The translations under genes were made by a program, and so were the position numbers. Positions 96 through 30,283 of a stretch of DNA of 30,283 bases are shown in pieces (within the stretch, counting starts at the first letter, position 1; each line of letters opens with the position of its first letter). The notes below the pieces were generated by a model. The model ran no database searches. It was not told where the DNA came from and worked only from the letters and a program-made list of their open reading frames with translations. Origin of the DNA: Cyanophora paradoxa CCMP329 (lineage: Eukaryota > Plantae > Glaucophyta); contig QPMI01000410.1 in NCBI GenBank assembly GCA_004431415.1, positions 1-30,283 on the forward strand, written 5' to 3'.

Positions 96-2501
96 GGGGA
101 GATGTCGTGGCCGGCATTCGGACGCCGTTCCCCCTCACCGTGCGCCAGCGGGCCGAGTCGGGGGCGGAGCACGCGGGCCTGCCGACGCTGGAGGAGCGAT
201 GCCGGAGGTGTACGAGGCGCTGGTGAGGACGGGCAAGGCCCTCGAGGACACTTCGGCGACATGCAGGAACATCGAGTTCACCATCGACAGTGCGTTTTCG
301 CGCTTTGAATTCAGTATATTTTGCGCGAGGAAGTCGTTTTGATGATTGTTTCTCAAACATAAACGTAGCTGGGAAGCTCTTCCTCCTCCAGACGCGAACG
401 GGCAAGCGGACGGGCTTCGCGGCCGTGCGGATCGCGCGGAGATGCTGCGGGCGGGCTGACGACGGAGGCGGGCGCACTGAAGCAGATCCAGCCCGACCAG
501 CTCTCCCAGGTCCTTCTTGATTCCGTTTCGCGCAAATTTCGCGCCCACTCGCGCGCGCTCAGCTCCTTTCGCCCGTCTTTGACGCGAAAGCAAAGAAGGC
601 CGCGGCCGCGAAAAAGGCCGCGAAAGGCTTCAACGCCGGCCCCGGGTGCGTTGACGTGTCCGTTCGCCTCGCACATATCCATGCATTCGCGATCGCTGAA
701 CTCGGGCCGGGCGCAGGGCGGCGACGGGCGTGATCGCGCTGACGACGGAGAAGGCGCACGAGCTCGTCGCCGCGCAAGAAGGTCGTCCTCGTCCGCGAGG
801 AGACCTCCCCCAACGACTACCCGGTGCCCCGCCCACGTCGATTGCAATCGGGGCTGTATCCTTCAACTGAAAGTACATATGCGCAGGGGATGGTGGTCGC
901 CAGGGGATCCTGACGGCGCGCGGCGGCTGCACGAGCCACGCCGCCGTCGTCGCCCGCGGCATGGGCAAGCCCTGCGTCGTCGGCTGCTCGACGCTCTCGA
1001 TCGACGAGGCGCGCGGAGTCGTCACGGCGAGCGACACGGGCCTCGAGGCGCGCGAGGGGGACCCGATCGCCGTCGACGGCTTCACGGGCGAGGTTTCTTC
1101 TGCCACGTCGAGACATCCCTCCGAAGTGCGCTGCTGCATCAATATCGCGCGCGTGCACGCTGCGCAATTCTTGCGTGTCATTACGACGCTGACTTCGACA
1201 CTCTTGCCGCAGATTGTGCAGGTCCTCATTAACAAGACGCTCAAGCCGAGGAGTCTATGCTCTACCAGAACTACAAGGTGAACACGGTCGAAACATGTAT
1301 ATGATTCTCGCTCAAATTTCTGTCGACGGCACGTGCACTCGAGCTCGCGATCATACTCACGTATTTTCACAGCTGATTATGGACGCTGCGGACCGGGCGC
1401 GGCGGCTGCACGTGCGGACCAACGCCGACACGCCCGCGCGACGCCCCGTGCCCGCGCCTTCGGCGCCCAGGGCATCGCCTCGTCCGGTGCGCCATGCGGC
1501 GAACAACGTCAACGTTATTGCGTCTCCACTTCCCCAGAAATTAAATTTGAATTTGAGCAGGACGGAGCACATGTTCATGAGCCGCAGCGGCTCACGGACG
1601 TGCGGCGCATGTTCTTTTCGCGCGACAAGGCCGAGCGCCTCAGGGCCGTCGACACCCTCAAGGTCAAGAAGGAGGTGCGATCCTGAGCCTCCCGCTTGGG
1701 TTTGTAGCCCGATCGCGCGTGCACGTGCGCGTGGCAGGACTTCGTGGGGATCTTCAGGGCGATGGGGCCTCCCCTGCAACATCCGCCTGCTGGACCCGCC
1801 CCTGCACGAGTTCATCCCCAAGAGCGAGGAGGAGATCGCCGAGCTGGCGCCCAAGCTCGGCCTCGCCGTCCGCGAGCTGCGGGAGATGCGGGACGGGCTG
1901 GAGGAGAGCAACCCGATGCTGGGGCACCGCGGCTGCCGCCTCGGGATCGTGCACCCCGAGATCACCACCATGCAGGTCCAGGCCATCCTCGAGGCCGCCA
2001 TCGAGGTCCGCGCTGATCATGAGTCGAGACCCGTCTTCGAATTATGTTGCGTTCGTGACGCCTTTGAACGCCAGGTGTCCAAAGAGGGCGTGGAGGTGCA
2101 CCCGGAAATCATGGTGCGGCGCCTTTGGATCTTCCAACTCTCTCGCGAATTCGAACGACCGCTGACGCGGCTTCGAATTCGTGCGCGGCGGGAGGTGCCG
2201 CTGGTGTGCCTCTCGAAGGAGGGCTGGAGCACCAGGTCCTCCTCATCGACGCCACCGCCGCGGCCGTCTTCAAGGCTGCCGGCACCGCCAATCAAGTAAC
2301 CGTCGGCACGATGGTGCGAATAAACCAAAGCTTCGTGTTCTCAAGCGGCCACAAACACCGCCTCTGATTATATGCATAATTTCCCCCCGCAGATCGAGCA
2401 GCCGCGGGCGGCGCTGCTGGCGGGGAGATGGCTTCGCACGCCGCCTATTTCGATTTCGGCACCAACGACCTCACGCAGACCACCTTCGCATCTCCCGCGA
2501 C
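96..2501 (+). CDS. PPDK: Pyruvate phosphate dikinase, central exons (gene starts upstream of the window; multi-intron; interrupted at 2501 by the LTR element)
   Basis: Exons separated by GT-AG introns encode PPDK motifs in the correct order: GE(D)VVAGIRTP (96-), [51 protein letters not shown] (phospho-His codon 937-939), [62 protein letters not shown]. Several single-base indels fall within exons. Confidence 0.96.
2497..2501. repeat. Left TSD GCGAC of the LTR element
   Basis: GCGAC immediately precedes the left LTR and recurs at 23995-23999. Confidence 0.93.
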
Positions 2502-2784
2502 TGTCGCGTGCGAGATTAGTGTGTCTAATCGTGCGCGCGGGAAGCCCGTGCGGAGTGCAAGCTCGGCAGGGCGGGGTTTGGCGAGTGCTGCTGCTGTTAG
2601 CCACCGGGATGGTAGACTGAGGGTGTACCCGTCCAGCTACGGCGTACCCCGACACACGCATACAAGTGACCGCGGCGCTCTAACTAGCCTAGGCGCCGTC
2701 GATCTAGCAGCACGAAGGCTGCGCACATCATCTAGAACCCTAGCGGCTCACAAACGAGCATCCGCTATAATGTCGGATGCGACA
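2502..2784 (-). repeat. 3' LTR (283 bp)
   Basis: TGTCGCGTG...ATGCGACA, with terminal inverted repeat TGTCGC/GCGACA. Identical by eye to 23712-23994. Confidence 0.97.
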
Positions 2785-2796
2785 ACTCCTCCTCTC
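2785..2796 (-). promoter_or_regulatory. Polypurine tract (PPT)
   Basis: Minus-strand GAGAGGAGGAGT abuts the 3' LTR. Confidence 0.88.
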
Positions 2797-2914
2797 GGAT
2801 CCCGCGTCCGCGCGGGTCTACGCCCTAAGGCGAACAGAAAGAGGGCCGGGGAAGCCGGGAATTTGATCGAGCCTAAGCTCTCTATACAACGCGACCCGGC
2901 CGCTATATACAAAT

Positions 2915-3049
2915 GCTCGGAGCTACCGGCTACTGCCGGGAATCGAAAAAGGCTCCGAGCCACTCACGCTCGGCGTCACCGGCTACTGCCGGGAATCGAA
3001 AAGACGCCGAGCCCATCCATGTCCGGCAACTGCCGGGAATCGAAAAGAC
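2915..3049. repeat. Three tandem structured repeats (CCGGC-WACT-GCCGG-GAATCGAAAA inside an outer stem) in the element 3' UTR
   Basis: Units at 2915-2960, 2968-3012 and 3021-3049. Outer stems are GCTCGGAGC/GCTCCGAGC, GCTCGGCGTC/GACGCCGAGC and GTC/GAC. Confidence 0.85.
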
Positions 3050-4099
3050 TGTCGCCCGGCAGGTGCCGGCACGACTCCAGCGTGGAGCGCCCAGGGGGCA
3101 AGGTCCAACTTCGGGCCGGCGGCCCAGGAAACTCGCACGAGGCGAGCGGATCGGAAGGGAGGAAGCCGAGGAGGCCCTGTCCTCGCCGCGCAGCAAGTTA
3201 ACCGCAGAGGCGCACGCTGCAACAGCAATTGCAACGCGGGGCGTGACGCTCGCGGTAGCGCCCAGTAGCCCCAGCGCAATGCCCGTCCCAAAACGTAGGG
3301 CTAAGCAGCTCGTCTAGCGCCACTGCTCAGGCATGCGCCGCGCTCTCGCGGTCCGCCACGGCGTCGGATTAGGGGCTGAGAAGCCCACAACGGCGGTGGA
3401 GCTAGTAACTCCAGGGCAAGGCTAGACGCCGCCCACAAGGTGCCCTCGTCGCCATCGTACGGCGGGAGGTACCCTGCCCGACCCGTGCTCGCGCGTCATT
3501 AAGGGGACGCGGCCCTCCAGGCGGTCCACCACCGAGCGTCCCCGGTGTGGAGCCCTGTATGGGGGAATTGTGCATCCCCAGTCATCGTACCCGGGGCGGG
3601 ACCCGGCGTCACGACCGCCTGTGTGTACCCCCGTTGGTGCTCGGCGCACCCCGGTACCCCACCAGGTCTTGCATCTCAAGGAGGGGGAATGCTCATCCCC
3701 TGTCACTGGGCCCGGGGCAGAATCCGGCGCCTCAGCCGCCTTCCGACTCCTCTGCCGGCGCAAGTCGCGCCCGGAGCTCGGCCAGGTCTTCGTAGGGCCC
3801 TCCGCCCGTCACTGAGCCGAGCATAGCTCGAGGCAGTCAGCCGCCCGTTGGCTCTCCTTCCTAGCCCGGGACTTTAGTGATTGTGGCGGGCGCTAGGCCC
3901 TTCTCAGCTCAACCCTCCGCGGGCAGCTCATCACTCTCGCGCTGCGCAGTTGCAGGCGCGGCCGCTCTCTGTCCTCGCCCTCCTGTGGGGCCGGGACGCG
4001 GCTCGGAGCCAGCTCCTCATGCTGCTCCCGCCGGGGCCGCCGGCGCTGCGGCCGCGGCTCCCGGTGCACCCGCCGCCCGCGGCCGCCCTCGGGCCGGCC

Positions 4100-5400
4100 G
4101 CGCGGGCGCGTTCGCATCGCGCATGCGGAACGGGATCATGCAATCGATGTGCACGATCGTCTCGCGGGTGTCGCGGGCCTTCTGGCGGACAGCGCCCACG
4201 GCGCCGTAGGGCCGGGCCAGGCCACGCACGACGTACGTGTACCCGCCCGGGTGCACGTCCATGACGGTGAACGGGCCGACCCAGGAGTTAAACAACCCTT
4301 GTCACGGTCGCCCAGCCAGCACAGGACTTTGTCGCCCACTTCGAAGCGGCGACGGTCCGGCAGGTCACCCGTCCGGTGCACCATTTGGCGGCGGTACCAG
4401 CGGCGGTGCTCGCGGACCGCGTCATCGCGGCTCTTCGCGGCGCGCACTACGGTCGCGACGTAGTCGGCGTAGCTAAGGGTGTCGAGCATTTCGACCCCGA
4501 AGCGCACGTCCGCGGGCAGCGTGAGCTCGTGCCCCAGGTGCAGGAGCGCGGGCGAGTAGCCCGTGGCCGCGTGCACGGTCGTGCGGAGCGCCAGCTGCAC
4601 CTCGTGCACGTGCTGGTCCCACTCGTGCATCGGCTCGCGCTCGGCGCGGCACGCCGCGTGGAGCAGCGTCTTCACGACGCCTCCCAGCCGCTCTACCAGC
4701 CCATTCGTCGAATGGTGGTACGCCGCGGCGTAAATGAACGAGTCCCGAGCTTCCGGAAGTACTCGTTGAACGGGCCGCCCTTCAGGCTGGACCCGTTGTC
4801 ATGAGAGGCGCAGCGGCACGCCCTCATTCGAGACGAGTCTCGGCCCATCTCGAGCATGGACCAGCCGTCCAGGTCGCCTTTGGGTACAGCCGCGTGTACT
4901 TGTCCCACGCGTTCACCCAGGCGACCAAATAGCGGTTGCCGCGCGGCGTCGGGTCGAGGTGGAACACGTCACCTGCCACAAGTCATTCCGGCCTCGGCCT
5001 CGATGACTGCGATCGCAGTTCGCCGCGGCTTCACAGCCTTGGCGAACTGGCAGCAGGGGCAGCTCCGCACGTAGCGGGCTACGGCCGCGAGCATGCCCGG
5101 CCACCAGAACTCAGCAGGATCCGGCGGGCGACGATCGAGGCGCCGCGGTGGCCCACCCATCGTGGTACGCGTACAGGACGCGGTCCTGCAGGACTCAGGC
5201 AGGACGGGCACGAAGCGGCCGTGAGGCGCGACGGGCGCGGACAAGCACGCCGTCGGTGTCCACGTCGAATTTCCAGCGAATCCGACGAAGGCCGCCTTGG
5301 CCTGACTGCAGAGGTAGCAGTCGCCCGTGTGCAAGAGGCGCGCGTGCAGCGGGCCTCGTTCACGCCATTCTCTAGCCAGGAGAACAGCTTGCGCACAGCG
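4100..5400 (-). CDS. Integrase (HHCC zinc finger, DDE core, GPF/Y module), frameshifted
   Basis: YAYHDG...EFWWPGMLAAVARYVRSCPCCQFAK; GNRYL; SHDNGSSLKG; YHHSTNGLVER; WDQHVHEVQLALRTTVHAATGYSPALLHLG; FEVGDKVL; WVGPFTV; VHIDCMIPF. Confidence 0.93.
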
Positions 5401-6744
5401 GGTCCGCCTTCTGCGCGGCGAGCAGCCTGACTCGCCGGGCAGGGAACATGTGCCGCAGGGTCTCGGGCAGGGCCGTCGAGGGAAGGCGCGGAAGCGCAAT
5501 CCCAAGTGTCCTGGACCAGCTCGAGCAAGCGCGGCTTGCGGCGGTCTCGGACCTCGCCCAGCTCAGGGCGGGGCGATAGCGTGACGAGAGGACTCTCGCT
5601 CGAGGCCTGCGGCGGGCGCCACTCGAGCCGGCGTCGCGCTTGAGGGCGCCTCGGAGGCGGCCGGCGGCTCAGAGGAGCGGCCGTCGCGCGGCGTCGACGC
5701 GGCCGGAGGACGACGCCGCGGGCGCGCCCTCGGGCCCTCATCAGGGTCGTCCTGGTGAGGGTACAGCGGCGGGCCGCAGCGCCAGTGGCGCGGGTTGTCC
5801 GCTTGCGGGGCGTCTTGCCGGGCGCGGGGCCTCAGGCGGTCGCAGGTTCGCGCGGCAGGGGCGCGACGGCCCTCGTAGCGCGCGGCCCTAGAGGAACCGA
5901 CGACGTACGTGCTCGAGGAGGGCACGGGGAACCGTCCTCGTCGAGCTCGGGCTCCTGCGCTGGCGCGGGCCTCAGGCTCGGCACAGGCGGCGCAGCCTCG
6001 CCATCGGAGCCCAGCTCCATCGGGTCGGACTCGGGCGCCGCGGCGGGCTCGGAGAGCGCGGGCCGGGGGCAGGCCTTGGCGACGGCGAGGCGGTGCCACT
6101 CGTCACCCTTGGCGCACCTCAGCCAGGTGGTGGGCTTCTGGCCGCGCCGAGTGGCGGACCGGCCTGCGGCAGCGCGCGCGCGGGCAGGGGCGCTTCCTGC
6201 CCCGCGGCAGGAGCTCGGGGCTCGGGCGGCGCCGGGCCCCGCGGGCTCAGTCTCGGCGCGCGCCGACGCGGCTCGGGGCGCGCGCGCGGGCAGGGGACGG
6301 GTCGTCGTCAGAGCCCTCCGGAAAGCCTCAGGCGGCGCGCCGCGTCCGACGCGGACGCGGCCCCTGGGCGGGCTGACGTCCCGCCTTGCGGCGGGAGCGC
6401 CCTCGAAGCGAGTGGCGCCGGAGGCGGCCTGTCGCCGCGCGACGAGGATCTCCGCCCGGCTGGGCGGAGCCGCGGCGCCGCGGCCTCGGCGGGCTCGGCG
6501 CTGACGCGGCCGGCGGCGCGGCCTCGGCCGGCTCGTCGGCGAGCTCGGTCAGGCGGGGGCCGGCGGGCCTCCACCGCTACCCGGGCCTCGCAGCGCCTTC
6601 GGCGGCGTGAGCGACTGCAAACAGCGGCAGAGGCTCGTCAAGGTCGCCGGGCTGGGGCACGCCGTGCCCCGTGCGCGGCCAGCGCGTCGGGCGCGGCCGA
6701 ACTGCCGTCGGCGCCGCCGGGCGCGAGAACCGGGTGGTTCAGTG

Positions 6745-7130
6745 GGGGCCGCGAGCAGGCGTCGGGCCCTCCGTTGTTGCGCCCCGCGCGGTACTTACGA
6801 CAAAGTCGTGGACTGCAGGAGGAGGGACCAGCGTCCAGCCTTCCGGAGGTCGCCTCGCGCGAGCGCAACACTGGAGCGCCTGGTGGTCCGTCCGGCCAGG
6901 ACTGGGGCCCTCCAGGAGGAAGTGCCGCCAGTACTTTATTGCCCATACAACCGCTAGCACTCGAGCTCGGTGGCGGTGTAATTCCGCTCAAGCGGGCGCC
7001 AGCGTCGACTGATGAACGCGATGGGCCGCTCACGGCGGGCGAGCCGCCATCGGATTGCGACAGGATCGCGCGATGGCGTACGTCGACGCGTCGGTCGACA
7101 GATGAAGGGCGCTCGAAATCCGGGTACCCA
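6745..7130 (-). CDS. Retrotransposon RNase H, frameshifted
   Basis: PFIC.TDAS; ERPIAFISRR; ERNYTATELEC/LAVVWAIKYWRHFL; RTDHQALQ; KYRAGRNNGGPDA. Confidence 0.92.
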
Positions 7131-8110
7131 AGTACCAGATCCTCGGCAGGGCGCCTTCAGCGCCTCGAAGGCGGCTTGGTGGACTCGGTCCATTGCCACG
7201 CGGCGTCCCGAAGCAGCAGGCGCTCAGCGGGTGGTGACACGGGCGAACCCGTTCACGAAACGCCGGTAGTACCCACCAAGCCCAGGAACGACCTCAATTG
7301 GTCAGCGTTCGCAGGCGGCGGTACTGGCGAATGAACGCCAGCTTCGCGGGTCCTGGCGATCCCTTCGGCCGAGACGAGGTGCCCGAGCAAGGCCACCTCC
7401 GCCACCCGAAGCGCACTTGGAGGGCTTCAGGCGCAAGTTCGCCGGCATGATAGCGCGGAACAGGCCTCGAGGTCCAGCAGTGCTGGGGCCGCTTGGCGAG
7501 AACACCGTGATATCGCGATATACGCGGTGACGCAAGTCGTGAGCAGGGGCCGAGGATGGCCGTCACGGCGCGCGAGAAGGCGGCCGGCCCGTTTGGTCAC
7601 GCCGAACGGGTCACGCGCCACTCGTAGTGGCCCCAGGGCACTACGAAGGCGTGTACTGCCGGGACGCGGGGTCCAGCGGCAGCTGCCAGAATCCCGCCGT
7701 CGCGTCGACGGTCGAGAAGATCATGGACCCCCGCAGGCGGTCCAGCTGATCGTCAATCCGTGGCAGGGAAGACGTCGCGCTCGGTGATCGCATTTAAGCG
7801 TCGGTAATCGACGCAGAACCGCCAGGTGCCGTCCTTCTTAGGAGCGAGCACGACCGCGAGCCATAGGCGGCTTGCGAGGGCTGGATCAGGCCCAGCTCAA
7901 GAGCGCTTTATTTCGTCACGGGCGAAGGCCTCGGCGTGCGGGCTTACACGCCGCGGGGCGTGAAGACGGGCAGCCGTGAGGTCAATCGGATCACGTGCTC
8001 GTAATGGAGGAGATTGGCCGTGCCCTCAGTGGCCGTGACCGAGTCGGCGAACGCGCACGAGTAGCGCTTCAGCAGAGCCTCTAGCTCGGCGCGTTCCGTA
8101 GCGCTCATCG
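7130..8110 (-). CDS. Reverse transcriptase (Ty3/Gypsy type), frameshifted
   Basis: Read manually on the minus strand: LEALLKRY; [21 protein letters not shown] (7797-7856); PRIDDQLD; [15 protein letters not shown]; PFGVT; TAYI(D)DITVFS (~7500-7528, one base missing); NLRLKPSKC; LLGHLVS; [15 protein letters not shown]. Confidence 0.94.
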
Positions 8111-12571: not shown

Positions 12572-12790
12572 TGACACAGAATCGCACAGAAAAGCACAGC
12601 ATAGCACGGGAAAGCACGGCATAGCACAGAAAAGCACGGAAGAACACAGGAAAGCACAGGTTGCACAGAAAAGCACAAGGAAGGCACAGGTCGGCATGGG
12701 TGGGCACAGGCTGACATGGGTAGGCACAGGGAACATGGGTAAACATGGGTGAACATGGGTAAACAGCGATTGCACGGGTAAACACAGGAG
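12572..12790 (+). repeat. Left subterminal ~10-bp tandem array (RCACAGR / CATGGGT units)
   Basis: About 20 degenerate 10-mers such as AAAGCACAGG, TAGGCACAGG and AAACATGGGT, followed by an AT-rich tract at 12790-12850. Confidence 0.88.
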
Positions 12791-13419
12791 TATAATTTAT
12801 TAATTGAAGATGTTTATTAGAATAAATCTACATAATTATAATTTTAATTTGCGCGGTGGGCGCCGGCGCGCCTCCGGGCCGGGCACGAGGCGTACTGCAA
12901 GGCCGGGCAGCAGCAGACGGCGGCGGGCCGGCTCGCGGGATGCGCCGGAGGCGCGGCGGGCGGCGGCACGGCTCGCCCAGTCGGGGCGGACGCGTGCTGG
13001 ACGGCGTTGCAGCGTGGTCGGCAGTGGCGCGGCTCGCGGGACGGAGCTGCGGCGTGGCAGGCAGCGGCGTTGCTCTCTCCGCACAGCGCCAATGCAGCTA
13101 TTGTTAACGTTGTATGCCATGGGCAGCTTGTTTTAGCTAAAGCTAGTTTTGCATGCCAGGGGAAATTTTCCAAGCTCTCTCTCTTCTCTTTTAGCTCAGC
13201 CCATGTACATGCTTGTTGCTTCGAATTCGCTGCCGAACTAACAAACAAGCTTGAGCAAGATCTAGCTATATACATAAATTAAAGGCACGTATGAAGAATG
13301 GGCACGCTCCGCCGCCACGGGGTATGAAGAATGGGCACGCTCCGCCGCCGCCCGCGGCCGCCGGCGTTCCGCCTTAGCCCTATCTTGCTGCCAAATGCCG
13401 AGAATCCACCCCGCCCCGG

Positions 13420-13920
13420 CAAGGCGCGAGCCACGCCGCAACATGCCGAGCCTGCACTCCGCCCCGTCCGGCGAGCCGCGCCGCCGCCCGCCGCGCCTCC
13501 GCCCCGTACAGCGAGCCGACCGCGGCGCCCCTGCCCCGTCCAGCGAGCCGCGCCGCCGCCCGCCGGGCCTCCGCCCCGTACAGCAAGCCGCACCGGCGCC
13601 CCCTGCGCCGGCGCCCGGCCGGCGCCCCGGCCCGGCCAAGCCACGCAGCTCCGCCCGGCCCCGCCCGGGTGCGGGACTCCTTTCGCGGCGGGTGTCGGCG
13701 GCGGGCGGCGGGGCGGCTCGCTGGGACGGCGGCGCAGCGGGCGGCGACGCGGCTTGCCGGCCGCCGCCCCGTTCCGCGAGCCGCCCCGCTGCCCGCTGCG
13801 CCGCCGCTCCGTCCCGCGAGCCGCGCCGCCGCCCGCCGCGCCGCCGCCCCGTCCCGCGAGCCGTGCCGCCGCCGTCCGCTGCTGCCCGTGCGGCGAGCCG
13901 CGCCGCCGAAGGCCGCGCCG
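13420..13920. repeat. GC-rich degenerate minisatellite (GCGAGCCGCGCCGCCGCCCGCC-type units)
   Basis: Recurrent CCGTCC(C/A)GCGAGCCGCGCCGCCGCCCGCCG units. Inverted copies lie at ~12900-13070, and a 28-bp direct repeat lies at 13289-13316 and 13322-13349. Confidence 0.75.
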
Positions 13921-17061: not shown

Positions 17062-17260
17062 GTAAAACACAGGGTTGCACAGAACACACAGGGTTGCACG
17101 GTTAAACACAGGTCTACATGGATAAACGCCGGTTTGCATGGGTAAACACAGGCAACATGGGTAGGCACAGGTGGACACGGGTAGGCACAGGTTTACATGG
17201 GTGGGCACAGGTGGACACAGGTCGACACAGGTCGACACAGATTGCACCAGATTGCACAGG
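17062..17260 (+). repeat. Right subterminal ~10-bp tandem array
   Basis: Same units (GTAGGCACAG, GTCGACACAG, CATGGGT), preceded by an AT-rich tract at 16975-17060. Confidence 0.88.
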
Positions 17261-21550: not shown

Positions 21551-23238
21551 GGTTGAACCGGGCCGCTGCCCGCGGTTCATGTCCTGGCCGTAGCCCCGGC
21601 CGCGTCCGCCGCGGCCCTGTGACTCAGCGTCCGGCAGTCCCGGCGGATGTGGTCCAGAGACCCGCAGGTCCAGCAGCCCGGCTCACGGTCGTCCTGGGCG
21701 CTCTTCTCCTTGCCCTTCCCCAGCGGGCGCTGGTTCGGGCCGGAGGCAGGGGCGCGGGTGGCGCCGCCCGGCTGTAGCCGCCGCCGCGGTCCCGGCCGAA
21801 GCCGCCGCGGTCGTTGCGGTAGCCGCCGCGGGCGTACGGCTCCTGGCGGTGCCCGCCGCGGTGCGAGAACCCGCCGCGGGTCGGGCCGGGCTCGCTGCGC
21901 TCATCGGCGCATCCTCCTCGCGCGCCGGCCGATCGCGGCGCCGCGCGCGCTTATCCGCAATCCCTTTCACCCACTCGAGTATGGGATATTGGGGAAGGGG
22001 CCGTGCCCACACGCAGTTCCACGTAAAGTGGCAGCGGTCGAGGGCCGGCATCTCCACGTGCATGCACAGGGGCATGGGGACGTGGTCGTGCTCGGGTACC
22101 CCAGGCGCTCCTCGTCGGGGTGCCGGCGACCCGCGACGGGCGCGCCCTGCGGAGCCTTCGTGCCCGGGGCCGCATTGACGGACTTGACGGGCACGGCCTC
22201 GATGGGCTCGTCGCCGTCGTCGTCGCTGGCGGCGGCCGCTACCGGCGCCAGCTTGCGCACGCGGGGCTTCTTAGCCTCCGGCGCCTCGAGTGCGGCCGTG
22301 GCCGTGGGGGGCAGCACGGTGCGGCAGCCGTGCGTCTTGCACGCTGCGACGAAGATTTCGTCGAGCTGGAGCGGCGACAGGGCGCCGTCCTGTGCAAGGA
22401 TGCGCTGCTGCAGCGCGGCGAGGAACGCGCGCAGAGTGCGCTCGTTCGCCTGGGCGAACCCGGCCATCCGAACATCGAGGTTCTGATATTCCGGGTCCTC
22501 GCTCGTCGAGCGGGCCTCGAGCGCAGTGCGCAGACACTCCGCATAGTACACGGCGAGGCGCTGGCCCTGGGGCAGCGTGTGCTGCACTAGGGGCATGAAC
22601 CAGTCATGCCATGAGCGCGGGTCCTCGCCCGTGTAGGGCTCAGTGAGAGCCCGGCGGGCCGCGTGCGGGCGCGTCTCATGAATCCATGCCGTGATCGTCG
22701 CGAGGAGCCGGGGGCACGCAAGTACGAGTCACGCACGGCCACGATAGTGGCATGATCGCGCGCGCAGCTCTGCTGCAGCGCCAAGATTGCAGCCTCATCC
22801 TCGGCAGTCCGCAGATCAGCCGGGACAAGTCCGAGACGAGCGAGCAGGGCGCGGTCACGCTCCAGGCCAGCAATAGAGGCCTCATAGAGGTCGCGCTTAC
22901 GCTCAATCTCGGCGCGGAGGGCGCCGGGGCGGATGCGCCCGACGATCACTCCGGCAAGCGCCTCAGACTTAGTATACTCCTGGCCGCCGCAGTGTCCGGG
23001 CCAAAGAGATACTTCGTCGGCTGAGCCGACTGGAAGTTCCGGACATCCTTCCGGAACCGGTCACCGTCGGCGAGGCGCGGCTTCGCGGGGAGGAAGGCGA
23101 TCCGCGCGGATCATCCTCCGCCGCAGCGGCGGTGCCAGCGAGCTGCACAGCAAGTTCGGCCTTCGCAGGCTCAACGTGCGCAAGTGCGGACAGCTGGCTA
23201 CGGACTTCAGAACTGATCAGTTCAGAAGTGTTCGACAT
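21550..23238 (-). CDS. Putative Gag (helical capsid-like region, Cys/His knuckle, RGG tail), frameshifted
   Basis: First coding region after the PBS (candidate ATG at 23238, MSNTSEL). It contains a coiled-coil-like LRAEIERKRDLYEASIAGLERDR, YTGEDPRSWHDWF (22635-22597), helical RAFLAALQQRILAQ, CMH..RCHFTWNC (22066-22013) and GRGGRGRG (~21600). The assignment is positional. Confidence 0.6.
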
Positions 23239-23686
23239 ATTGCTCTCTTTGCAGCGTATAGCCACGAGAACAGAATGCCAGGGCACAAGATTTGAGCTGC
23301 AGCGCACTGCAGATCCGGGACACGGTCTTCTCGTGGCGTGCGAGAACCGACTCAGGGACACTCAGAGAACTGCCGCTGGCAGACTCCGGGCACAGTGTGC
23401 GACGCGAAGCGTGCAACCGGCGAAGGGACACAGACAATGATTGAGACTCTCGCGAGAGCTCGTGCGTGCGCTTCGGTCTGGGGATGCACCGAAGCCGCGA
23501 GGGACACTAGAGTCACTTCCGAAGCACAATCAGCCCGCCAGAGGCGACGCGGCCGAAGTGTGCAGCGTAGCACGCCACAAGTGGCGGTCGCCCGGAAAGC
23601 TCGTCCCAGATCTCTTTAAGCTTATGCGAGGCGGCGCGGCGAGGCGCGCGGCGCGGGCAGAGCCTGGAAGTCCAGCGACCCTTGAA

Positions 23687-23711
23687 GGTTCGATTCCGGC
23701 AGAATGGCGCC
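23687..23711 (-). promoter_or_regulatory. Primer-binding site (complement of a tRNA 3' end)
   Basis: Minus-strand GGCGCCATTCTGCCGGAATCGAACC abuts the 5' LTR. Its complement GGTTCGATTCCGGCAGAATGGCGCC reads as a tRNA T-loop through to CC(A). The usual leading T of TGG is absent. Confidence 0.82.
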
Positions 23712-23994
23712 TGTCGCGTGCGAGATTAGTGTGTCTAATCGTGCGCGCGGGAAGCCCGTGCGGAGTGCAAGCTCGGCAGGGCGGGGTTTGGCGAGTGCTG
23801 CTGCTGTTAGCCACCGGGATGGTAGACTGAGGGTGTACCCGTCCAGCTACGGCGTACCCCGACACACGCATACAAGTGACCGCGGCGCTCTAACTAGCCT
23901 AGGCGCCGTCGATCTAGCAGCACGAAGGCTGCGCACATCATCTAGAACCCTAGCGGCTCACAAACGAGCATCCGCTATAATGTCGGATGCGACA
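23712..23994 (-). repeat. 5' LTR (283 bp)
   Basis: Identical copy of 2502-2784, followed on the minus strand by the PBS. Confidence 0.97.
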
Positions 23995-23999
23995 GCGAC
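23995..23999. repeat. Right TSD GCGAC of the LTR element
   Basis: GCGAC immediately follows the right LTR. Confidence 0.93.
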
Positions 24000-24557
24000 G
24001 ACCGTCGGACGCCTCCAAGTGCGGCGCCGGCTGCTCGATTTCTTCCAGATTTCCTTCGAATTTCCGTGTTGATTCCCGATCCGAGCAGGTTCCTGACGCC
24101 GTACATGGAGGGGATCGAGCACCCGATGCACCCGAACGAGCTGATGGTGATCGTGCAGAGCGACCCCTTCCAGAAGCTCGACCAGGAGGGCGTCGGGCAG
24201 CTCATGCGCATGGCCGTCGAGCGCGGGCGCGCCGTGCGGCCGGACCTCGCGTGCGGCATCTGCGGGGAGCACGGGGGGGAGCCGAGCTCGGTCAAGTTCT
24301 GCCACCGCATCGGCCTCGACTACGTCTCCTGCTCGCCCTTCCGCGTCCCCGTGGCGCGCCTGGCGGCGGCCCAGGCGGCCGTCGAGGAGCCCGGCTTCGT
24401 CTCCGACTCCACCTCCGCGGGCGCCAAGACATGGTCCGAATTTGCCGCGCTTCTAGATCTTCCGAATGCAGACGCAGTGCCGGGGCGCCGCTCACTCGCT
24501 CGTCACAGCTGTGAATTCGGGTTGTCGCCATCGACGCCAAGCGGCTGCGGGATGTAA
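23995..24557 (+). CDS. PPDK: Pyruvate phosphate dikinase, 3' exons resuming after the retrotransposon
   Basis: The sequence continues D...ASK, then intron 24019-24088, then FLTPYME...[15 protein letters not shown]...[42 protein letters not shown], the canonical PPDK C-terminus. The stop position is uncertain because a further intron after ~24432 is possible. Confidence 0.93.
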
Positions 24558-25214: not shown

Positions 25215-28200
25215 CTAGTAGCGGCGGTCGAGCTCGAGGGTCTTGAGCTTGTCGTGGAAGTCGGCGAGCGCCGCCGCCACCACCTCCGCCAGCGCGTCCT
25301 CCTGCGGCGGGCGCGGGGCTTGAGGAGGGAGCCGGGGCGGGGCGGGGGCGGGGCGGGGGCGGGGCGGGGGCACCTCCTCCTCGGCGAGGAGCTTGGCGAG
25401 GGAGGCGGAGAGGGTCTTGAGGACGAGCTTGAAGTCGTTGAGGACGAACCAGACGTCGCCGGCCTCGAGGCGGTTCCCCGCCTCCAGGTCCCGCCCTGCC
25501 CGTGGCCCATGAAGTCGTACAGGTACGCGTTCTGCGCGGCGCGGCGCGGCAGAGTGAGATGGGCCGGGGCGGCGGGAGCACGGGCGGGGCGGGGCGGGGC
25601 GGGGCGGGGCGGGCCTGGAGGGTGCCGGTGCGCTTGCGCGATGCGCGGACGGTCGAGGGACGACCGGCACGCTCGCCGGCTCCACGCGCACCCCTCCCGC
25701 ACCGAGCCCTGCGCGCCCGCCGGGCTCGGGAGGGAGGCGGGGCGGAGGGGCGAGGGGTGCGGACGACGAGGTCCTCGACGGTGTCGAAGCGGTCGCCTTG
25801 CCGGCGATGGCCGAGAAGGGCGAGCGCGCCTGCGGCCCGAGGGTGAGGCGCCTCTCATGAAGCCAAGCCTCCGGGGCGGGGGAGGGCGCACGAGAAGGGG
25901 ATGCGGCGGCGGCGTCGTCGCCGGCGAGGAGGGCGGGGCCGGGGCCGGGGCGCCGTGGCGGCCGAGGCCGTCCACGCGGGGCTCGTCACCCCCGAGAGCG
26001 GCAGCTTCGGCGCCTGCCGCCCCGCCGCCCCCTGAGCCCGGGCGAGGAGGGCGGGGGGCGGGAGGGCGGGGGCGGCGACCTCCTCGAAGGCGCGCTTGCA
26101 GCCGCGGCGCGGAGGAAGGCGCGGAGGGAGCGGGCCGCGAGCCGCAGGGCCGCCGCGTTGTGCCGGTCCAGCACCGCCTCCACCTCCTGCCCGCAGCAGC
26201 GCAGAGCAGCGCGGCGTCAGAGGGGGAGGGAGCGAGGGAGGGGGAACGGGAGGGAGGGGCTCGCCTCGGGAGGGCGGGGAGGGTGCCGATGGAGGCGCTC
26301 TTCGGCGGTACGCCGCAGCACCGACCGCGGCGTCCTGCGGCCGTCGGTGAGTCGGGCAAGCCGGGCGGGCTCCTGCTTGCGGGCGGGCGCGGGCACCGGA
26401 TGACGCCGAAGAGGTGGGAGAGGACGAGGACCAGGCGCCGCGCCGCCTCCGCCACGTTCGGGCGCCCCTGCGCAGCGGCGGGGGCGCTCAGGCGGGCGGA
26501 GCCCTCTGGGCGCCCTGGCCGGGCTCGCCTGGGCGGCCCCGGGGCGCGGAGGCCCTCCTCGACGACCCGTGGAGGGCGCCCGAGCCGACCAGGCGGCACA
26601 GCGCGAAGCACGCCGGGTCCGAGTTGAAGAGGTGCACCGCCAGCCCTGCCCCGCCGCTCGGGGGCGCGGGGAGGGAGGGCGGGCGGGGCGAGGGGGCGCA
26701 CGGAGAGGCCGTCGAGGGAGGCGTCGCGGTCGATGTAGCGCGAGCGGCGCAGGTACTCCAGCGCGTACCGCACCCTGCCCCGGGCGCTGAGCGGGGGGGG
26801 GGGGGGGGGCGCGGAGCACGCGTGGAGCAGGCGGGCGACCGGTGGTAGACCTGGGCGCCGAGGGAGTCGCCGCCGTGGCAGAAGAGCGGCTGCCCGAGCA
26901 GCGAGAGGACCTTCTCCCCCGTCCGCTCCCGCCGCTCGTCCGCTCCTTGGCTGCGCCGCGATGCGATGCGAGGCTGCGCTCAGCGGCGCGGGCGAGGGGT
27001 GACCAGGCCGAGCAGGGCGGACCGGGGAGCGGGGGCCGGCCGACGGGCTGCATGCAGGACTGCGTGTAGAGGCAGAGGGAGCGCAGCACGAGGGACGTGG
27101 AGAGCGGGTAGTGCCCTGCCGGCAGCGGGAGCGGTCAGAGGGGGGGGGGGGAGGGGGCGGGCGGGGGGGCGGACCGCGGAGGCGGGCATGTCGGCGATGA
27201 GGAGGCGGTTGAGCTTGGGGCGGGGCAGCCCGAAGAGACCACGTGCCCGATGTCGTCTGCGCGGCGGCGCCCGGCTCAGGCGAGGAGGGGGTGGAGGCGG
27301 GGGGCGCGGGCGGGGGCGCACCGAAGCCGCGGCGGCCGGCGCGGCCGGACTCTGGCGGTACTGGAGGGCGTTGAGGAAGACCGAGTCGCCGGCGAAGACC
27401 ACGTGCGGCACGGCATGTTGATCCTGCCCGCCCCCCTCAGCGCCGCCCCGCGGTCGGGCGGCGCTGGAGCGGAGGCGGACCCGAGGGCGAGGTGCCGGTG
27501 GCGAGGACGACCTTGATGTGCTTGCGCCGGAAGAGGATCTCCACCGCCTCGCGTACTTCTTGTTCAGGCCTGAGGCGCCCGGGTGTCACGCGCCAAGGCC
27601 CCGGCGGGGGGAAGGCAGGCGAGGCGGGCCCCGCACCGGCGTGGTGGACGCCGATGCCGCGGCGGAGGAGCCGCACGAGCGGGCCGTACCTGCCGCCCCG
27701 CCCCGCGCGCCTCAGCGGAGCCGGGTGCGGGGCGGGCGGGGCGGACGGGGGTCGCGGGCGAGCTTCCACTTGACCTCCTCCATGAAGTCGCGTACTCGCT
27801 GTCCGTCATCCCTCGTTCTGCCCCCGCGCCCCGCGGCGTCACCGGTCTGCAGCGGGCGGGCGGGCCGCGGGCCGCGGGCGGGGCGCGCCTTCTTGACGAA
27901 GGTGAGGTCCTCGTCGCACGGGTCTCCTCCACCTCCTCCGCCAGCGACTCTGCGGCGGCCGGGGTTGGCGCCGGGGGCGGCCGGCGGGGCGGGGCGAAGG
28001 GGGCGGACCGAGGGCGCCCTCCTGGGCCATCTCCTCCATCTCGCGGCCCTTCATCTTCTGCGAGGCCTTCTCCATCGCCTTGCGCGCCGCCTCCCGCGCG
28101 CCTTCTTCGCTCCCGGTCCCGCACCTGCCCCGCCCCCGCCTCAGCCCGCCTGCTTCTTCCTCGCCCGGGCGCCGCCCGGCGGGGCGGACCTTGCGGCGGC

Positions 28201-30283
28201 CCTCCTCGGTGTTTGTGCGGCGCCACTCCTCTCGGCTCCAGCAGGGCCCCGTCTCCAGCGCCAGCACCTCGCAGATCTGCCGCCCGCGCTCGAGGGGGAG
28301 GGGAGGAAGGGGCGAGAGCCGGGTGGATCCCACCTTGCGGTCGAAGCAGAAGGTGATAACGGGGAGCTTGTCGTTCTGCGGGGCACGGAGCTGAGCGAGG
28401 CGGCGGGGCGGGGCCGGCGAGCTTAAGCCGGCGGCGGACCTCGCGGAGGGTACGGAGGAGGCCGAGGTAGTGGGCGGCGAGCCAGGGACGGTCCCCGCCG
28501 CCCCTCCGCCACGGCCCGCTGGTCCAGCACTCGAACGCCTGCGCACCGGGGCGCGTGTCGGCGGGGCCGGGCCGGGGCGGGGCGGGGCGCACGCGGTCGC
28601 GTCGCCGACGATGGCGTCGAGGGCGACCTGGAGGGCGCGCCGGTGGCCCTCCCCCGCCGCCAGCCAGCGCGACACCAGCGCCTTCAGGTCCGTCTCGAAG
28701 CTCTTCGCCCGCGCCTTCGTGATCACACGGTCCTGCGCGCAGCGGGGGTGGGCGGGGGCCCAGCAGGAGGCGGGGCGGGGGCGGGGGACCTGGGCGAAGT
28801 AGGCGTCGGGGTCGAGGGCGGCGAGCGCGGCGCCCTCCGCCTCCGCCGCCTTCGCCTCCAGCAGCCCCGGCGTCTGCGCCCGCACGCGGCGGCGTCACGA
28901 GGGGCGGGGGCGGGACAGGAGAGGGCGGGGGCGGGCCTTGGCGGCGCGGACGAGGGCGTCGTAGAGGGCCGTGCTCTCGTCCGGCGCGAACGAGAGGTCC
29001 TTCGGGGGCGGCGTGAGCTCCGACAGCGCGCGGGCCGGGCCCCCTAACTGCCTCGGGCGGACCTGGGGGAAGCCGCCGGCGCGGAGGAGGCGGGCGACGG
29101 ACATGGCGGCGCACGGGTGCAGCACGCGCATCTCCCGGGCTTCTGCTCCCCGCGTCGGCCCGTCCTTTCAAGGAGGCCGCGAGGGGGCCCGCGCACTGGT
29201 TTCTGCAGGCGAGCTTGAGCTCCGGTTGTGCCCGGCGGCAGGTAGACGTATCTGCGCGGCGAGCGGCCGCGTGAGCCGAGCGGCGCGGGCCGAGCGGGCC
29301 GAGCGGGGTGGGCGGGGCGGGTGGGGCGGACTTGCGGAGTCGGAGTAGCGGATGTTGAACTGCACGAGCTTGACGTTCCGCTGGCTCTTGGCCTGCGCGG
29401 CGAGGGCGAGGGAGGGGAGGGGAGTGTAAGAGAGGGCGGAGCGGGGAGATGCAGAGGGCGGGGGCGGGGGCGGGCCTGGGTGTCGGCCATCCAGCGCTGG
29501 AGGTCGCCGGTTGCTGATGGTGGCGGAGAGGGCGAGGAAGGGGCAGCGGACGAGGACGAGCAGGTGCTCCACACCGACCCGCTCTCCGCAGTGCCTGCCC
29601 GGGCGGGAGGCGGAGCTCAGCCGGCGCCCGAGCCGGTGCGAGCGAGGGAGGGGCGGGCGGACCGGCCTCGCGGTTGGCGGTGGCGCTCTGCCCGATGCAG
29701 TGCACCTCGTCGAAGATCACGAACTTGATCCGCCGCACCCACGCCTGCGGGAGGTCAGGGGGCGGGGAGCGAGGGGGCGGGCGATGCGGGGGCGCGCCTG
29801 GATGGTCTCGTGCGGGGAGAGGAGGAGGCCCTCGAGGACGGCCGGCACCGTCACCAGCACCTGGCAGTCAAAGTCGTAGTAGCCGTAGTCCCGCAGCTGC
29901 GCCCGCCGCCGGGGTGAGCGGCCGGGGGGTCGGGGAGGGGGGGCCGTGGCGTGGGGACCGCCGCGCCTTCATGCCGAAGACAGACTTGCCGCCCTCCGTG
30001 TACGTCTTCCCGCGGAAGCGCGCGTAGACCTCGGCGGCGACCTGCCGCCCGCGGCTCGTCAGGGCCCCTGAGAGGGCGAAGGGCTTTGTAAGGAGTCGCG
30101 AGGGCGCGCCTGGTTGACGAGGGCCTTGGTGGGCGACACGAAGACGCCATATCCCATCGTCGTCCGCGCGAAGGACCTGCGCCGACCGAGGGCAGCTCAG
30201 ACGGCGGCAGCTTCTCCGGCTGGCCGGGGCGGGCGGGCGGCCTTCTCCATGGCGTAGTAGGCGGCGAAGGTCTTGCCGGCGGA
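25215..30283 (-). CDS. DDX60: DDX60-like Ski2-family DExH RNA helicase (multi-intron; 5' part lies beyond the window)
   Basis: Minus-strand exons: SAGKTFAAYYAMEK (motif I), VSPTKALVNQ, CQVLVTVP, RRIKFVIFDEVHCIG (motif II), CPFLALSATISN (motif III), RYSD, LHPCAA, KLPVITFCFDR, LLRRGIGVHHAG, AVEILFRRKHIKVVLATGT, VVFAGDSVFLNALQYRQ, NAYLYDFMGHG...VWFVLNDFKLVLKTL, stop at 25217-25215. Confidence 0.9.

Follow-up and report, generated by a model that had tools for sequence, protein, structure and literature searches.

The stretch of DNA analysed here, 30,283 nt of contig QPMI01000410.1 from Cyanophora paradoxa CCMP329 (hereafter the window), carries a 21.5-kb long terminal repeat (LTR) retrotransposon on its minus strand, with the gene order of Ty3/gypsy elements. 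The 3′ untranslated region (UTR) of the element is 516 nt long and contains, between the remnants of pol and the polypurine tract (PPT) and 118-265 nt upstream of the latter, an array of hairpins at 2915-3049. This array consists of three head-to-tail units plus a degenerate fourth hairpin, and each of the three units carries a stretch complementary to the element's own primer binding site (PBS). Here we describe the array, which is a hypervariable tandem repeat with a conserved core, and weigh a tentative proposal for its role, that it may allow the two ends of the element RNA to pair as they do in the yeast retrotransposon Ty1, together with other accounts of its origin and use.

Structure of the array

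The hairpin units and the PBS occupy the following positions, where the anti-PBS 15-mer is the stretch complementary to the PBS.

2915-2960, minus strand: unit 1, with a 9-bp outer stem, a 12-nt internal loop containing UUUUUCGAUUC, and the inner hairpin CCGGC-AGUA-GCCGG (core 2926-2949; anti-PBS 15-mer 2933-2947)
2968-3012, minus strand: unit 2, with a 10-bp outer stem (core 2979-3002; anti-PBS 15-mer 2986-3000)
3021-3049, minus strand: unit 3, with the loop AGUU (AACT on the plus strand) and a stem of 2-3 bp, GTC/GAC (core 3023-3046; anti-PBS 15-mer 3030-3044)
3053-3073, minus strand: degenerate fourth unit, CCGGCAGGTGCCGG, with the inner hairpin CCGGC-AGGT-GCCGG (plus-strand letters) at 3056-3069 and without the GAATCGAAAA tail
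23687-23711, minus strand: PBS, GGCGCCATTCTGCCGGAATCGAACC, 25 nt, abutting the 5′ LTR; its complement resembles a tRNA 3′ end through the T loop

In plus-strand letters the 24-nt core reads CCGGC-WACT-GCCGG-GAATCGAAAA, which on the element strand becomes UUUUCGAUUC-CCGGC-AGUW-GCCGG, and the cores are near-identical between units. Unit 1 reads GCTCGGAGC-TA-CCGGCTACTGCCGG-GAATCGAAAAAG-GCTCCGAGC on the plus strand, with GCTCGGAGC and GCTCCGAGC as the two strands of its outer stem; unit 2 reads GCTCGGCGTC-A-CCGGCTACTGCCGG-GAATCGAAAA-GACGCCGAGC and is closed by GCTCGGCGTC and GACGCCGAGC. The window contains three copies of the 17-mer CTGCCGGGAATCGAAAA, all of them in the array, as against 0.09 expected, and none of 100 shuffles reached three.

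A 191-nt segment spanning the array folded at -95.8 kcal/mol on the minus strand (z -4.56) and at -89.9 kcal/mol on the plus strand (z -5.51), and on neither strand was any of 200 dinucleotide shuffles as stable. In the predicted folds, units 1 and 2 each form the outer stem and the inner 5-bp hairpin, with UUUUCGAUUC single-stranded between the two. Unit 3 is predicted to pair with the degenerate fourth unit (3053-3073), with the same U-rich stretch near the apex, and UUUUCGAUUC is unpaired in each predicted unit. The description of the sequence in the first-pass annotation, as three tandem units with a common core and stems, was accurate: the array was recovered and folds as described on both strands.

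Complementarity to the primer binding site

Within each core, UUCGAUUCCCGGCAG is the reverse complement, plus one extra C, of CUGCCGGAAUCGAA (23689-23702), which makes up positions 10-23 of the PBS. The core 15-mer and these positions would form 14 bp with one bulged C, between partners that lie 20.7 kb apart. This relationship, a reverse complement with one extra base to the element's own distant PBS, had been proposed at first pass together with the placement and orientation of the array in the 3′ UTR of the element, and all of it is confirmed here.

The 9-mer TTCGATTCC has four occurrences in the window, three in the units on the minus strand and one in the PBS complement on the plus strand, compared with 0.08 expected. 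When the PBS 25-mer was compared with the 516-nt 3′ UTR, the observed score was reached by 7 of 2000 shuffles, a figure that became 3 of 2000 when the array was reduced to a single unit, and the units are the top-scoring anti-PBS match within the 20.9-kb interior of the element.

The match extends five nucleotides (GGCAG) past the generic T-loop 9-mer and then ends sharply on both sides, at 14 nt. Read from the sequence, the GGCAG extension points to the element's own PBS or its primer, and not to any tRNA, as the source. Because the match extends beyond the 9-mer and stops so sharply, we judge it likelier that the core is truly related to the PBS of the element, or to its primer tRNA, than that the match is coincidental. 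Such a relationship does not in itself imply function, which is considered separately below.

The strongest predicted duplex partner of the PBS lies elsewhere, at 5614-5637 on the minus strand (GCGACGCCGGCUCGAGUGGCGCC) in the integrase region, and pairs with the LTR-proximal half of the PBS. Its strong pairing is probably an effect of GC content.

Variation within the array and among family copies

Units 1 and 2 have 25 identical nucleotides in common (ACCGGCTACTGCCGGGAATCGAAAA), and the 20-21 nt that flank these differ at about eight places. The outer six pairs of the stem, GCTCGG/CCGAGC, are found in both units; the linkers differ, being AGC...GCT in unit 1 and CGTC...GACG in unit 2, and each is fully paired. 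From one outer stem to the other, two pairs are altered on both sides and one pair is added. Chance is an unlikely source of complementary 3-4-nt linkers in the two units alike, so a helix has been favoured in the outer stems of units 1 and 2, which could reflect selection on RNA or DNA structure or a templated mechanism. The earlier characterization of the hairpins as covarying thus stands only in a weak sense, for the two compensated pairs of units 1 and 2; its basis is two units of one copy, and units 3 and 4 are without such stems.

Copies of the element were sought in twenty public sequencing runs of one organism (about 110 million contig letters each), in which 65-68% of the sampled words of 2400-5400 were present. 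Variation within the family was read from the contigs of four runs, where contigs of the array are 74-212 nt long, too short to phase entire arrays. In run X1, word depth was about 158 in the host flank, 1,200-5,600 in the 3′ UTR and up to 19,000 in the LTR; depth does not equal copy number, and the element is clearly multi-copy. A run presumed to be of RNA gave no coverage of 2901-3064, an absence that is uninformative on expression. The bins of the core are about 7,100-7,300 deep, or 2-3.7 times their neighbours. Since this depth roughly fits three cores per copy, the motif does not seem, as a rough argument, to be abundant beyond the family.

Between 2800 and 3100 (301 nt), the four runs contain 18 substitution sites and 7 indel sites. 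The core positions, about 73 of the 301, hold 2 of these 25 variable sites (Fisher p 0.052, binomial 0.038), namely 3028 in the hairpin loop of unit 3 and an extra A at 3042. The cores are almost invariant among the family copies, and the spacers, the outer stems and the number of units vary. As partners of the predicted pairing, core and PBS were not seen to vary in the contigs. One sub-family has an extra unit (38 nt at the joint 3049->3029) with the inner hairpin loop GTCGACT, in one run a joint of low confidence, 2951->3095, suggests a form with a single unit, and the spacer at 3003-3020 has many indels. The array therefore varies in number and in sequence between pol and the PPT, as hypervariable 3′-UTR tandem repeats do.

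Further scans were made in other collections. Among viral contigs, the core 17-mer gave two single matches in unrelated context and no tRNA, and the integrase-bearing open reading frame (ORF) gave 99 pattern matches, none of them confirmed. Among metagenome contigs, a scan for two cores 20-50 nt apart gave 17 loci, none of which is this element, and neither collection yielded a relative.

Likeness to tRNA and priming of the element

The likeness of the units to a tRNA T arm is one of primary sequence only, with UUCGAUUCCCGG corresponding to a T loop followed by the 3′ strand of a T stem. On the element RNA, UUCGAUU is preceded by UU and not by a strand that pairs with CCCGG, and CCGGC pairs downstream with GCCGG. 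No stem closes UUCGAUU, and the units lack the 5-bp T stem around a 7-nt T loop that tRNA models recognise. ARAGORN found 0 tRNA genes in the window, and Rfam searches of 2300-3600 and 23620-23712 on both strands gave chance-level matches only, with no tRNA match at E up to 10. We therefore do not retain the idea that the hairpins mimic a T arm in structure.

Real T arms, as seen in the metagenome loci, continue GAATCGAACCCGG; there GAATCGAA runs on into CCCGG, unlike in the units. The 17 loci each have a tRNA 3′ end (GCCGGGAATCGAACCCGG...) with a second partial T-arm/acceptor copy 38-63 nt away, in DNA of 38-59% GC. This pattern is typical of the attachment sites of elements integrated into tRNA genes, and is unrelated to the array.

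A self-encoded primer had also been suggested, and was not supported. The best match between the PBS and the LTR is the 6-nt palindrome GGCGCC, which lends no support to self-priming of the Tf1 type. A bipartite PBS of the Ty3 type does not fit either, as the units share the sense of the tRNA strand that the PBS implies. The complement of the PBS includes GGTTCGATTCC, and the PBS starts AGG, not TGG, its first position being the terminal A of the LTR. The tRNA implied by the PBS has a G discriminator and, counting CCA, 17 nt beyond the T loop, one more than in the canonical 7/5 tRNA; judged on geometry only, a 9/4 selenocysteine-type tRNA would fit better.

Comparison with known systems

The closest counterpart of the array is found in Ty1. 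There CYC5, immediately downstream of the PBS and likewise complementary to the primer tRNA, pairs directly with CYC3 at the 3′ end; compensatory mutations restore reverse transcription (as described in the relevant sections of PMC4974528, PMC3592414 and PMC7969010). A statement that known elements are without a direct 3′ partner for the PBS region overlooks this pairing (same sections of PMC4974528 and PMC3592414), which the first-pass annotation missed. In the Cyanophora element, too, complementary sequences are present in the 5′ PBS region and near the 3′ end, and are predicted to pair over 14 nt plus a bulge. As in Ty1, this would be a direct RNA-RNA pairing between a segment of the PBS region and one near the 3′ end, with a 5′ partner that is also complementary to the primer tRNA and a 3′ partner that is therefore tRNA-like in sense. 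The lengths are also similar, the Ty1 pairing reportedly spanning 14 nt in the 2002 work of Cristofari et al. The Cyanophora element differs from Ty1 in being of Ty3/gypsy order, in carrying its 3′ partner on 3-4 tandem hairpins, and in having a duplex that is bulged and a pairing that is predicted only. Its 5′ partner, moreover, is contiguous with the PBS, as the T-arm part of it, whereas that of Ty1 is a separate D-stem box.

In Ty3 and, by proposal, in HIV-1, the tRNA bridges the 5′ PBS and a tRNA-complementary 3′ segment, and it has been suggested that this cooperation between the ends makes the genome circular, for initiation or for minus-strand transfer (passages on this point in PMC11381356 and PMC9757044). 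The bipartite PBS of Ty3 (Gabus et al. 1998) and the U3 tRNA-Lys3-binding segment of HIV-1 (Piekna-Przybylska et al. 2010) would thus share with the array the cooperation of a 3′-terminal sequence with the 5′ PBS. As those passages describe them, however, their 3′ segments are complementary to the tRNA, whereas the Cyanophora units are tRNA-sense and would pair with the PBS directly.

Between pol and the PPT, the 3′ UTRs of the plant Tat/Ogre Ty3/gypsy elements contain hypervariable tandem repeats, which are believed to originate in replication (PMC7004042, in its account of these repeats). Like these elements (Macas et al. 2009; Vondrak et al. 2019, PMC7004042), the Cyanophora element is very large and has short tandem repeats at this place, which differ among copies in both number and sequence. 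For the Tat/Ogre repeats, neither a relation to the PBS nor a conserved hairpin core has been reported, and the Cyanophora element is likened to them by its repeats, not by lineage. With Tf1 it would have in common that the PBS pairs with the element's own RNA instead of, or besides, a tRNA; the partner in Tf1 is the 5′ end of the transcript, cut into a primer, whereas the Cyanophora partner is 20.7 kb downstream.

To our knowledge, direct 5′-3′ pairing at the PBS has been experimentally established only for yeast Ty1. Such pairing and hypervariable 3′-UTR repeats are each known already; what would be new is their combination, with a tRNA-sense core, 3-4 hairpin copies, and a partner contiguous with a 25-nt PBS, in an element of Ty3/gypsy order. 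Our literature search, which was not exhaustive, met no published 3′ anti-PBS repeat in an LTR element.

A possible cyclization site and its alternatives

By the logic of the Ty1 CYC sequences, the 3′ partner of a tRNA-complementary 5′ segment must itself resemble the tRNA, and a tRNA-sense core is what the array shows. On balance we lean, with confidence that stays clearly short of even, towards the view that the array is a CYC3-like 5′-3′ cyclization site carried on a hypervariable 3′-UTR repeat of a young, multi-copy element of Ty3/gypsy order. The acceptor strand of the primer tRNA would take the LTR-proximal 9-12 nt of the PBS (GGCGCCAUUCUG), and the distal half of the PBS (CUGCCGGAAUCGAA) would pair instead with the exposed UUCGAUUC loop of one unit, opening its inner hairpin. 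This pairing would dock the 3′ R region beside the site of minus-strand strong-stop DNA synthesis, and could favour initiation, the first strand transfer, or both. With three or four copies displayed on stable stems, nucleation via the UUCGAUUC loop, which is single-stranded, would become more probable. The core probably derives, through template switching, from the primer tRNA or the PBS, and probably multiplied afterwards in the manner of 3′-UTR repeats.

In a more specific form of this proposal, the element would have an independently evolved, RNA-only means of cyclization: up to four hairpins upstream of the PPT would present the T-loop/T-stem strand of the primer tRNA and pair with the T-arm half of the unusually long, 25-nt PBS, which would be shared between the tRNA and the 3′ UTR and would have the 3′ end docked at the initiation site. 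We regard this form as rather doubtful. If true, it would be a multimerised and structured counterpart of Ty1 CYC5:CYC3, with a tRNA-derived sequence co-opted as a cis-acting replication signal.

Several results weigh against a role in cyclization. The match of the PBS is marginal when the whole interior is considered (15 of 200 dinucleotide shuffles reach its score), and in duplex energy the units (-31.2 kcal/mol) come third, after two GC-rich sites at 5614-5637 (-35.5) and 3725-3773 (-31.6). When a 300-nt leader is compared with the 516-nt 3′ UTR, the best match lies elsewhere and is ordinary (328 of 1000 shuffles). Cofolding of the PBS with the repeat, a check proposed at first pass, gave a divided answer: the PBS-unit duplex is in the minimum for leaders of 26 and 150 nt and drops from it at 45 and 80 nt, and the gain from cofolding is small, at -5 to -10 kcal/mol. 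Half of the anti-PBS 15-mer is locked inside the inner 5-bp GC hairpin, the same bulged C is present in all units instead of a perfect complement, and PBS-unit pairing would compete with the T-arm strand of the primer tRNA.

The family copies add to these points. The covariation seen between units 1 and 2 does not carry over to the family, in which conservation of the outer stems is not strict. All contigs of the four runs have G at 2969, and its partner at 3011 is unchanged, which gives the commonest family form a G.G mismatch at the second pair of the unit 2 stem; an 89-nt contig over 2926-3014 departs from the window at 2969 only. One sub-family swaps 2821-2924, including the 5′ strand of the unit 1 stem, for about 15 other letters. 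The number of units is variable, as in neutral hypervariable repeats, and the pol of the window copy is badly broken.

The array may instead be a neutral by-product, an account that we consider somewhat unlikely. A fragment of the primer tRNA or of antisense PBS would have been captured by template switching during reverse transcription and multiplied by illegitimate recombination and abnormal strand transfers, as in the hypervariable 3′ UTRs of large Ty3/gypsy elements, and the complementarity would then reflect common origin and not function. The location between pol and PPT matches that of the Tat/Ogre hypervariable repeats (PMC7004042, as above). The variable unit number and spacers (the sub-family with an extra unit, the low-confidence single-unit joint, and the indels at 3003-3020), the imperfect or lost outer stems of some family members, and the sharp confinement to 14 nt of the homology with the PBS complement also speak for such an origin. 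Even divergence would be expected of it, yet the cores are identical amid differing flanks and are under-represented among the variable sites of the family (2 of 25). It also sits poorly with the compensated changes in the inner pairs of two outer stems, and a tRNA-sense insert requires a rare switch onto the tRNA as template. Retroviral 3′-UTR transport elements and direct repeats act as repeated protein-binding sites, and the hairpins could be a multimerised site of this sort, bound by Gag/nucleocapsid or a host factor for RNA export, packaging or stability, with a PBS match that is coincidental or ancestral. Conservation of the entire core would suit protein binding, as this takes in UAGCCGG, the inner hairpin's 3′ strand, to which nothing in the PBS corresponds. 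The same stem is moreover found with four loops (AGUA, AGUU, that of the degenerate unit, and GTCGACT of the sub-family), the exposed loop adjoins stable helices in all units of the predicted fold, and the element encodes a CCHC zinc knuckle. We nevertheless think such a role distinctly unlikely; no protein or motif was identified for it, and the complementarity to the PBS (7 of 2000 shuffles against the 3′ UTR) is left unexplained.

Other roles appear far less probable. The units might act at the DNA level as B-box-like TFIIIC sites or as cruciforms, or be the source of a self-encoded primer cut from the 3′ UTR, and to these we give very little credence. TTCGATTCC resembles the B box of RNA polymerase (Pol) III genes, which is the T-loop region of tRNA genes, and the units are palindromic, so that both strands fold. 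However, where real T arms and B boxes have two G before TTCGA, every unit has T at both places, the window shows no cloverleaf or tRNA match by ARAGORN or Rfam, and no complementarity of the Tf1 kind was seen between PBS and LTR. A tRNA bridge of the Ty3/HIV-1 type, in which the units bind the primer tRNA and one tRNA links the 5′ PBS and the 3′ UTR, is equally improbable. Circularisation through the tRNA has been proposed for Ty3 and HIV-1 (PMC11381356 and PMC9757044, in the passages noted), and a mimic of the 3′ strand could in principle be complementary to the T-stem 5′ and acceptor 5′ strands that are freed on annealing. The units, however, have the same sense as the tRNA 3′ strand, and only about 5 + 3 non-contiguous nucleotides could pair with the freed strands.

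Were the array a cyclization site, it would be a second independent case of direct 5′-3′ pairing, and would point to a general requirement of LTR-element replication for genome cyclization at the primer site, answered by convergent means. The case would be especially telling in that superfamily and host lineage are different and the 3′ partner is multiplied on hairpins. It would also tie the hypervariable 3′-UTR repeats of large elements to a function in replication. If the complementarity reflects origin only, the locus still records the capture of a tRNA/PBS-derived fragment into the 3′ UTR of a retrotransposon. Because the family appears young and multi-copy, the idea of cyclization is testable with a marked mini-element.

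Anatomy of the element and its surroundings

The remaining features of the element are as follows. Pol domains were searched as stop-free ORFs.

2497-2501 and 23995-23999: left and right copies of the 5-bp target-site duplication (TSD) GCGAC
2502-2784, minus strand: 3′ LTR, 283 bp, TG...CA, with the terminal inverted repeat TGTCGC/GCGACA
2785-2796, minus strand: PPT GAGAGGAGGAG(T), reverse complement of ACTCCTCCTCTC, abutting the 3′ LTR and upstream of it on the element strand
5035-5112, minus strand: Integrase_H2C2 remnant (integrase zinc-binding domain; Pfam, E 1.1e-07)
6742-7223, minus strand: RNase H remnants in two frames (Pfam RT_RNaseH, E 1.6e-05, and RT_RNaseH_2, E 5.7e-06)
7644-7793, minus strand: weak fragment of a reverse transcriptase (RVT_1, E 0.0039, under the Pfam cut-off)
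21631-21678, minus strand: Gag zinc knuckle (Pfam zf-CCHC, E 5.3e-05)
23712-23994, minus strand: 5′ LTR, 283 bp

The two LTRs have 0 differences over 283 bp and are bounded by a duplication within the 4-6 bp expected of LTR elements. On the minus strand the order is gag CCHC, reverse transcriptase, RNase H, integrase, which is that of Ty3/gypsy elements, with a reverse-transcriptase match that is weak. The copy in the window is not autonomous, because its pol reading frames are badly broken. Short pol fragments in different frames, identical LTRs and a multi-copy family together suggest a large non-autonomous derivative that is mobilised in trans. The interior (2785-23711) is 20.9 kb long, and about 13 kb separates the Gag zinc knuckle from the reverse-transcriptase remnant.

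The element is inserted within a conserved coding exon of a pyruvate-phosphate-dikinase-like gene, to which it is antisense; matches to Pfam PEP-utilizers_C lie on both sides (2440-2501 and 23995-24380, plus strand). The TSD falls in the R-D-D codons of the host gene, and the right flank reads on with DDRR. About 12 nt before the insertion site the frame of the host gene shifts by one base, with ISRD in another frame than the preceding residues. Judged from the sequence, this copy of the host gene looks disrupted twice.

Two arrays with a 10-nt period (of the CACAGNNNNG type), at 12575-12765 and 17065-17257, bracket a segment of about 4.3 kb in the interior of the element. Between them lie GC-rich tandem repeats of 40 and 72 nt (13457-13634 and 13756-13920) and inverted copies at 12904-13098, and the segment may be a nested element or a captured satellite. 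Downstream of the host gene fragment, 25300-29330 is 74-79% GC and G-skewed, with many short arrays of the (GGGGC)n type.

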